From NCBI RefSeq assembly GCF_003334355.1, contig NZ_QOWP01000095.1: a stretch of DNA of 1,140 bases; one strand, given 5' to 3'. Below the pieces are notes generated by a model. The model ran no database searches and was not told where the DNA came from. It was given only the letters and a program-made list of their open reading frames with translations. Source of the stretch: Escherichia coli (GTDB lineage: Bacteria > Pseudomonadota > Gammaproteobacteria > Enterobacterales > Enterobacteriaceae). A program made the translations under genes and the position numbers. This document shows, piece by piece, positions 1-1,140 of this stretch; position 1 is the first letter of the stretch; each line of letters begins with the position of its first letter.

Positions 1-158
1 GTCAGCCTGCCGTGACGGTCATACCGGTAAAGATAGTGCGCGTCACGGGCGATACGGTTATCCGGCCACATGCTGAGGGCGCTGTCCGGGTGCAGCTCCG
101 GGTCGGGCAGGCGGTTACCTGCCGGGTCTGTGGCATACGGGATATCAATGCCCAGGTT
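1..158 (-). CDS. ybfO: 5'-truncated orphan Rhs core fragment (internal Rhs core segment); continues beyond the left edge of the window
   Basis: Minus-strand frame with codons 158-156, 155-153 ... 5-3 translates without stops as [52 protein letters not shown]. This closely matches the Rhs core segment that I recall from RhsA (…[21 protein letters not shown]…WPDNRIA.DAHY.YR.D..GRLTEK), which lies roughly 330 aa before the DPxGL end of the core. GC content is high (58% in 1..60, 72% in 61..120), typical of Rhs core DNA. There is no ATG, GTG or TTG between the upstream TAA (191..189) and the homology start. The first in-frame ATG is at 71..69 and has no recognisable Shine-Dalgarno. It could equally be annotated as a pseudogene or remnant. 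The symbol ybfO is tentative and from recollection. Confidence 0.65.
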
Positions 159-188
159 ACATATAATAATAAGAGCAATTAACTTAAT

Positions 189-515
189 TTATTTGTTTAT
201 AATGCGCTTACTTAATACAAACCATTGAATATACCCTCCTGACAGAAAATAAAGCCATATTATTATCGCCATAATATACTTACTATCAATCCTTACGCCA
301 ATAATGTCTGATACAGTCCCTATAAATATTAGAGCAATAAAGAATACTATGCCTGTTGGAAAACATATTACCATCATTCCATAAGACATGAGACTAATTA
401 ACTCGCTCACATCACGAGTGGAGTCTAATAGTGAAAGTCTATGCATGGAAAAGAATAGTATTAAAAGCGATAAAGCCAGCCATATAGCTCTGAATAAAAA
501 AATAATATATTTCAT
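189..515 (-). CDS. ybfB: Small multi-pass inner-membrane protein (108 aa), presumptive cognate immunity protein for the upstream Rhs C-terminal toxin
   Basis: ORF of 108 codons with ATG at 515..513 and TAA at 191..189. A GGAG Shine-Dalgarno sits at 526..523, 7 nt upstream of the ATG. The start overlaps the toxin stop by 1 nt (TAATG), the usual toxin-immunity coupling arrangement. The protein has three hydrophobic segments by eye (IIFLFRAIWLALSLLILFFS, MMVICFPTGIVFFIALIFIGTV, IMAIIIWLYFLSGGYIQWFVL) and is very AT-rich (about 27% GC in 181..240), like the toxin tip and unlike the flanking core DNA. The symbol ybfB is from recollection of a 108-aa membrane protein downstream of rhsC in E. coli K-12; treat as tentative. 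Confidence 0.8.
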   Translation of the reverse strand: MKYIIFLFRAIWLALSLLILFFSMHRLSLLDSTRDVSELISLMSYGMMVICFPTGIVFFIALIFIGTVSDIIGVRIDSKYIMAIIIWLYFLSGGYIQWFVLSKRIINK

Positions 516-1140
516 TACATCACTCCGGTGAATACAAATCTAATAAAACGTCCAATGTTATTTCCGGAGCACTTCATCTTACATGTTTCTAAAGAATCAT
601 TAGACCAGTCTTGGCAGTTTTTAAATAGCCCTAAATTTATAGGTGTGAATATATCAGGCAATACAGAATAACGCGGCCTTACCTCTTTAAACTTCCCTTT
701 TAAACAGTTCTCCACACAACTATTATCGGTTTCAACGAGGTCACAACGGCCAGCAGCTTCTTTTGTATCATTACTTGCTTTACCTGGCCCCCATAGACCA
801 TCTCCTTTTGATTCTCCCCGTTGGTCTTGGCCACCACAAGTATAGTCCCCTTTACCATCTGGGACACAAAGATATTGATGATAGAACGGATTCCCCCATA
901 TATCTGGACCGCTTCTTTCACCAGTTCCGCCCATTGAATGCAGTGGCTTAATGCATTTTAGTGTTTCTAATCCTAATGGATCTATATTTGAGATCGGATT
1001 CAACGGATACTGATAAAAATTCCATCCCCCTTTCAGCCCAATCGGATCCTGAGTGATATATCGCCCCTGCAGCGGGTCATAATAGCGGTGGCGGTTGTAA
1101 TACAGGCCGGACTCCTCATCATACTGCTGCCCCGGCAGGC
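515..1140 (-). CDS. rhsC: Rhs-family polymorphic toxin, 3' portion (conserved core terminus plus variable C-terminal toxin domain); 5' end lies beyond the right edge of the window
   Basis: My manual translation of the minus strand upstream of the ORF-track start stays open to the window edge and reads [57 protein letters not shown], the canonical end of the Rhs repeat-associated core with the PxxxxDPxGL demarcation motif. The 'M' the ORF track places at 1003..1001 is a TTG codon inside this frame, not a real start. After DPLGL comes a 150-aa tail (967..518) with 9 Cys and a Gly-rich stretch, ending at a TAA stop (517..515). The symbol rhsC is a recollection-based guess from the 108-aa membrane protein neighbour and the downstream core fragment; Rhs cores are too similar between paralogues to assign on the core alone. 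Confidence 0.85.
518..967 (-). other. Variable C-terminal toxin domain of the Rhs protein (150 aa, Cys-rich, unclassified)
   Basis: Sequence after DPLGL: [150 protein letters not shown]. It has 9 Cys and 2 His, and I do not recognise a known toxin-family signature. Base composition differs from the core (about 32% GC in 541..600 versus about 58-72% GC in the core-derived stretch 1..120). Confidence 0.7.
523..526 (-). promoter_or_regulatory. Shine-Dalgarno (GGAG) for the immunity gene, embedded in the last codons of the toxin CDS
   Basis: Minus-strand sequence upstream of the immunity start reads ...TTCACCGGAGTGATGTAATG: GGAG, then a 7-nt spacer, then ATG. The same bases encode the toxin's final residues F-T-G-V-M. 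Confidence 0.6.
968..997 (-). other. PxxxxDPxGL motif ([10 protein letters not shown]) marking the Rhs core / C-terminal toxin boundary and the likely autoproteolytic cleavage site
   Basis: Direct translation: P at 997-995, D at 982-980, P at 979-977, L at 976-974, G at 973-971, L at 970-968. Upstream lies the conserved [20 protein letters not shown] block. Confidence 0.85.

Follow-up and report, generated by a model that had tools for sequence, protein, structure and literature searches.

The Escherichia coli gene ybfB and the displaced Rhs core fragment that follows it lie in the same reading frame with a single TAA between them, and we consider it highly probable (about 0.93) that this shared frame, with no other stop in it, is a frozen accident of cassette splicing that plays no role in expression. 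The window, i.e., the whole 1,140-nt stretch of DNA that was analyzed, is the rhsC-ybfB-ybfO (rhsO) locus of E. coli, a classic rhsC element that is already known; the frame coincidence in it is real but ordinary and has no detectable consequence. What is added here to the known locus is only the base-level position of the junction between the ybfB side and the old core, which sequence comparison places at about 143–146, and the finding that its phase equals that of ybfB.

In a megablast search of 5426 complete E. coli genomes the whole window was matched at 99.9% identity, and the PGAP annotation beneath the match reads rhsC, then ybfB, then "RHS element protein, incomplete, missing N-terminus." In the PGAP coordinates, ybfB covers exactly 189..515 and the RHS pseudogene has its boundary at exactly 158 (6189–6515 and 5538–6158, respectively, in the numbering of the surrounding locus, where 6001 is window position 1). 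The "immunity ORF" and "orphan core fragment" named in the original prediction are ybfB and ybfO/rhsO. The equivalent locus in K-12 MG1655 is rhsC-ybfB-ybfO (pseudogene)-ybfC, from which the window shows no difference in kind; it is the type locus itself.

The 3′ end of rhsC occupies 515..1140 (minus strand) and consists of the core end and an AT-richer, 150-aa C-terminal tip, terminating with TAA at 517..515 (PGAP, NCBIfam). The gene is full-length, annotated at 1397 aa, and its core closes at a motif of the PxxxxDPxGL type with a variable tip beyond: DPIGL is encoded at 1048..1034 (-) and DPLGL at 982..968 (-), and the NCBIfam RHS_core and TIGR03696 models match residues 1–57 of the translated 1138..518 segment, up to the motif. 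There are thus two DPxGL motifs at the RhsC core end, DPIGL followed by DPLGL, 22 residues apart. GC content falls from about 0.6 over 1061..1140 to 0.32–0.42 by about 920..1020, across both motifs, and because the fall spans the stretch that holds them, we place the cassette boundary on the rhsC side near the DPxGL motifs. The tip itself (518..967, -) comprises the 150 residues after DPLGL and contains nine cysteines by direct count. It had no significant match in Pfam, NCBIfam or PADLOC, and Pfam returned a single sub-threshold match for the tip segment (OCRE, E = 0.019). On the basis of its position the tip is a putative toxin, and its target might lie in the envelope, given its richness in cysteine and its membrane-protein partner.

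Directly downstream of the tip, in the position of an Rhs immunity gene, lies the small ORF ybfB (189..515, -), which according to the ORF list and the annotation encodes a 108-aa hydrophobic protein. With its ATG (515..513), ybfB reaches into the stop codon of rhsC, giving TAATG (513..517, -), the usual arrangement of translationally coupled toxin/immunity pairs. Kyte-Doolittle analysis gives YbfB hydrophobic spans characteristic of a small multi-span protein; it is annotated as "protein YbfB" in thousands of E. coli genomes and matched no NCBIfam or PADLOC family. A role in immunity is putative and is assigned from position, i.e., from its being a small ORF that overlaps the rhsC stop.

The orphan core ybfO/rhsO enters the window with its 5′ part at 1..143 (-), corresponding to RhsC residue 899 onward, and runs past the window edge. 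The GC profile marks a compositional break between GC-rich core and AT-rich tip/immunity cassette: values of 0.58–0.72 in 1..140 drop to 0.18–0.23 over 141..220, remain at or below 0.48 across ybfB and most of the tip, and return to about 0.6–0.7 at about 1080..1140. As expected of a displaced fragment of the same clade, the orphan core has neither an N-terminus nor a translation start of its own. No ATG, GTG or TTG occurs in the core frame between the ybfB stop and window position 71. The K-12 ybfO pseudogene is annotated from an internal ATG at 71..69, upstream of which there is no Shine-Dalgarno-like sequence, and the one ATG that the spacer contains (163..161) lies in another frame, with TAA directly after it. 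In K-12 the ybfO frame passes from the end of the core to a different tip, with ybfC behind it, so the orphan has its own tip and immunity gene; because its 517-codon frame is still open in that strain, fusion would give a complete protein. Promoter and terminator scans of the window gave nothing above shuffle expectation, and Rfam gave no match to it; since no terminator was found in the whole window, there is none between ybfB and the orphan.

The shared frame was verified by translating the minus strand from 191 to 1. The TAA at 191..189 (context AAA-TAA-A) is the sole stop that separates the frame of ybfB from that of the orphan core. Beyond it, 188..159 supplies 10 sense codons, the Rhs core frame takes over at 158..156, and the frame stays open down to the window edge. 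The original prediction had claimed exactly this, i.e., one frame with a single TAA between the two coding regions, and the translation confirms it. Its second claim, of a membrane protein that becomes joined to the core fragment through a change in one stop codon, holds as well: the K-12 MG1655 frame that opens at the ATG of ybfB and closes at the ybfO stop has 626 codons, and the TAA at codon 109 is its sole internal stop. A single base change at this TAA would yield a fused ORF of 625 residues. Where gene prediction presents it as a novel "membrane-Rhs" protein, as might happen in draft genomes, stop-loss or a sequencing error is the explanation to adopt.

Two coding regions are in the same frame with a probability of 1/3, and shuffled spacers, with composition kept, are free of stops in a fraction of 0.40 for a length of 30 nt or 0.27 for 45 nt, giving a joint probability of the same frame and no stop of about 0.13 or 0.09, respectively. 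Stops do occur in the spacer's two remaining minus-strand frames. Three of 10 independent immunity-to-orphan junctions were in frame, as a probability of 1/3 predicts in this small sample (n = 10). Four of the 10 come from the rhsA, rhsC and rhsD loci of K-12 (yibA to yibJ, yibG to yibS, ybbC to ylbH, and ybfB to ybfO), five from an orphan array in Salmonella (contig L003), and one from contig L009. Among the three in-frame junctions, one has more stops in its spacer, and yibG to yibS leads into a stop-filled fragment. The observation is correct, and it is no more than chance would give. The original prediction had called the shared frame most likely a coincidence, and the chance level, the other junctions and the divergent homologs described below all favor that view.

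The yibG to yibS junction (K-12, L012 6622..6891) is the second in K-12 at which the stop of the small ORF lies in the orphan core frame. In yibG, core-like codons (NKENP) begin before the stop, and yibS is riddled with stops.

The point at which core sequence begins was located by DNA comparison from both sides. From the core side, 598 of 605 nt (99%) are identical to the rhsC core, with an abrupt onset at window 143, i.e., RhsC residue 899, and matches to paralogous cores in other E. coli genomes also end at 143. Immediately beyond, 158..144 encodes NLGID at the place where the rhsC core has NLDIR, with 9 of 15 nt identical; the string LGIDIPY was present in none of the full cores compared (RhsA, RhsC, RhsD and three from Salmonella), all of which read LDI[R/T][I/L]PY. 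From the ybfB side, the stop codon and the spacer align with the 3′ flank of the ybfB homolog on L009, from TAAGTTAA through CATTGA, down to window 145. The alignment scores 32, compared to 15.4 ± 2.6 for shuffles, of which 0 of 2000 were as good; it includes 157..145 (ACCTGgG--CATTGA) and contains separate indels of 2, 3, 3 and 2 nt between the two flanks. L009 and the shorter contig L010 are the two sources of this spacer homology. The Salmonella 3′ flank did not align significantly to the spacer of the window; its score of 12 was matched or exceeded by 1731 of 2000 shuffles.

Because core identity starts at 143 and flank homology runs to 145, the true splice is placed by these alignments at about 143–146 and not at 158/159. 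On the same grounds the non-core spacer measures about 45 nt (144..188, -) rather than 30 nt; from the GC profile and the L009 alignment it is the non-coding 3′ flank of the rhsC-tip/ybfB cassette, it is open in the frame of ybfB and the core, and its ybfB-proximal part (159..188) has a GC content of 17%. The original prediction had described the frame relation across a spacer of 159..188: the frame was given correctly, and the boundary was not. Since 30 and 45 are both multiples of 3, the statement about the frame is unchanged.

The 15 nt that differ between the two boundaries (144..158, -; NLGID) are core according to PGAP and the RHS_core profile, and flank according to the DNA alignment. 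By the latter, weak protein similarity has led both the PGAP boundary at 158 and NCBIfam's RHS_core profile, whose alignment to the readthrough peptide begins at about residue 9, to carry the orphan core some 15 nt too far (to about 158–164), and the segment is probably flank DNA with GAT/ATCC microhomology at an illegitimate junction. We also considered whether 144..158 could be core from another Rhs lineage; LGIDIPY is absent from every full core compared and the L009 flank is the better fit, so this origin was set aside, not decisively, as RHS_core still aligns there. Annotation pipelines thus put the orphan boundary at 158, apparently by protein similarity, whereas the DNA evidence puts it at about 143–146, and a base-level position for the junction is useful for reconstructing Rhs tip exchange.

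The junction is carried by 2684 of the 5426 complete E. coli genomes, about half being without it. Among the carriers, 2650 are 100% identical over 140..215 (76 nt), and each of the 27 full-length matches to 60..330 that were sampled is exactly 271 nt long. This constancy says nothing about selection, because the junction is essentially monomorphic by common descent of one event. In the other 34 genomes the junction is under 99% identical, and a rare stop-codon variant may occur among them. Two of these were inspected: one has a substitution inside ybfB at window 205, and the other, strain 2018-02-2CC, carries IS1 2 nt behind the stop codon of ybfB and has lost the orphan together with everything up to ybfD.

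Outside this near-identical set, the cassette has other neighbors. In Salmonella enterica an rhsC-type tip (83% identical) and a YbfB homolog (66%) occur as an orphan module, in which the gene ends with TAG and is followed by a 122-nt spacer with an in-frame TGA and by a core fragment that starts from RhsC residue ~1185 in a different frame; the junction is alike in six contigs. L009 and L010 encode a YbfB homolog that is 78% identical, with the gene end TAATAA, and on L009, the longer of the two contigs, a 143-nt spacer leads to a core fragment from residue ~567 in yet another frame. A more distant homolog (53% identical) on L011 has no core fragment on its short contig. Comparison of orthologous loci and a search for spacer indels in related strains had both been suggested as checks with the original prediction. 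The former shows that the frame relation is broken in Salmonella and L009, with other frames, in-frame stops and indels of 2–3 nt; the latter turned up the 2–3 nt indels in the L009 flank, and within E. coli it has no power, given the identity of 2650 of 2684 junctions. A third suggested check was for fused annotations. Among the 42 YbfB protein clusters from a search of 5.8 billion predicted proteins, no YbfB-core fusion was found, which favors coincidence; the longer YbfB hits (126–171 aa) are read-outs into IS1 ends, frameshifts or N-terminal extensions, and none enters the core.

In Salmonella enterica the module with the 83% identical tip and its ybfB-type gene lies at L003 4086..4783 within a long orphan array, and a second copy of the tip (79% identical) is found at L003 8635..9413, where the ORF behind it is truncated by the end of the contig. 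Because it is found in a Salmonella orphan array, the rhsC-type tip/ybfB cassette moves between genera.

In the reading we prefer, a cassette comprising an Rhs core end, the AT-rich toxin tip, ybfB and about 45 nt of 3′ flank would have recombined into a resident rhs gene, and the old core end with its tip and immunity gene (ybfO-ybfC) would have been pushed downstream as a silent "orphan," i.e., by C-terminal displacement. The splice between flank and old core at about 143–146 would have set the phase relative to ybfB in that single event, to be inherited clonally thereafter, and it is because the phase was fixed in this way that the shared stop-free frame would be a frozen accident. Translation of ybfB would end at its TAA, and the orphan would not be translated from the junction. 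This sequence of events follows the published displacement model (Jackson et al., 2009, PMC2935791): through core homology, a piece that bears part of a core, a tip and the genes behind it recombines into a resident rhs gene, the old tip is shunted downstream, and the breakpoints are marked by core fragments that vary in length. The window shares the anatomy of the "dissociated tips" or orphan rhs-CT modules described in that work: a full-length rhs gene is followed by a small ORF and then by a same-clade core fragment that has a tip and an immunity gene of its own. Every structural feature by which a displaced Rhs module is defined is present at the locus.

Comparable arrangements are known from contact-dependent inhibition (CDI) systems. 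Orphan modules of the cdiA-CT/cdiI type likewise represent displaced toxin-tip/immunity pairs located downstream that retain a conserved upstream stretch and usually are without initiation signals (Poole et al., 2011, PMC3150448). They belong to the CdiA family with its VENN motif, in contrast to the Rhs PxxxxDPxGL motif of the window. Orphan CDI fragments generally are without initiation signals, and in E. coli EC93 the orphan is co-transcribed with the main genes and its toxin is not detectably synthesized (Poole et al., 2011, PMC3150448). The Salmonella Typhimurium orphan similarly consists of a core fragment, tip and immunity gene behind the main rhs gene; its toxin arises not from the immunity/orphan junction but from an internal promoter together with a CTG start close to the tip (Starsta et al., 2020, PMC7043789).

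Any reading in which the shared frame is used, whether by readthrough of the UAA or by recurrent stop-loss, would yield a membrane-anchored fusion of YbfB, Rhs core (899 to the end) and orphan toxin. If true, this would mean intracellular, delivery-independent expression of a silent orphan toxin that is held in check by ybfC, analogous to the toxin-antitoxin-like behavior reported for Salmonella orphans; we give it almost no credence. In its programmed or leaky form, readthrough of the ybfB TAA would make the fusion a functional protein, and some features are compatible with this: the single TAA is followed by 517 open codons in K-12, there is no terminator-like site after ybfB, such that a transcript running on past ybfB could in principle bring ribosomes to the orphan, and the 10 codons past the stop encode hydrophobic residues, although DNA with a GC content of 17% encodes such residues anyway. 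Both release factors recognize UAA, which in E. coli leaks less than either of the other stops, and known cases of programmed stop-codon readthrough, such as A1 of phage Qβ, involve leaky UGA/UAG or stimulatory contexts and a conserved extension. The window resembles the Qβ A1 case in having one stop between two in-frame coding segments. It differs in that the stop is UAA followed by A, neither a leaky stop nor a stimulatory context, with no Rfam element and with the sole stable hairpin about 70 nt downstream, far from the stop; the AT-rich extension is not conserved, since neither the frame nor its openness is kept in the Salmonella and L009 homologs, L009 has tandem stops (TAATAA), and its spacer homolog carries 2–3 nt indels; and no fused ORF is present among the predicted proteins of the 42 clusters. 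We regard readthrough as extremely improbable. The frame might instead have been kept under selection for evolvability, so that a single stop-to-sense change could activate the orphan toxin as a fusion. The arrangement is constant in 2650 genomes, and a second K-12 junction, yibG to yibS, is in frame as well, but the constancy is that of a near-identical whole region and carries no power, the fragment behind yibG is riddled with stops, and seven of the 10 junctions are out of frame. In the protein databases searched, no stop-loss fusion was found, and the fusion product would miss the N-terminal part of Rhs, including the ~900 core residues that precede the orphan fragment. The documented route by which orphans are mobilized is, moreover, recombination within core homology (PMC7043789, PMC3150448), and selection on the frame is hardly credible against these points.

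Phase could matter in a different way if ribosomes that finish ybfB restarted in the spacer and translated the orphan core and its tip as a separate protein, with translation of the two coupled. The gap is short (30–45 nt), no terminator was found, and the rhsC/ybfB pair directly upstream uses a TAATG overlap. Against this, the core frame contains no ATG, GTG or TTG from the stop to window 71, the spacer ATG is out of frame and runs directly into TAA, and the ATG annotated in K-12 is not preceded by a Shine-Dalgarno-like sequence. Termination-reinitiation would not require a shared frame anyway, and we consider it very unlikely.

Several minor features of the window were also recorded. The sole stable hairpin is a 7-bp, GC-rich stem (GGCAGGUAACCGCCUGCC) at 105..123 (-), about 70 nt past the ybfB stop and within core coding sequence (PAGNRLP); the 101-nt region around it folds with a z-score of -2.4. 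As no T-run follows, it is not a terminator, and it is probably incidental to the GC-rich repeat. ORFs of 52–58 aa at 2..178 (-), 12..182 (+) and 70..228 (+) lie across the GC-rich orphan core, on the opposite strand or in a different frame; these are typical spurious ORFs of GC-rich DNA and are without annotation in any genome inspected.

In strain 2018-02-2CC (L016 2440..2530), which carries the IS1 insertion, ybfB is annotated as frameshifted, and several YbfB variants in the protein database (P0003, P0007–P0009) also read into IS1 ends; the AT-rich 3′ end of ybfB seems to be a target for IS1. Within the orphan, at window ~82..84 (-), the sequence reads DSALS, and the main rhsC core and the orphans of K-12 and W5-6 read DSTLS. 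This is a single-base polymorphism and one of the few differences in the 99% identical core copy.
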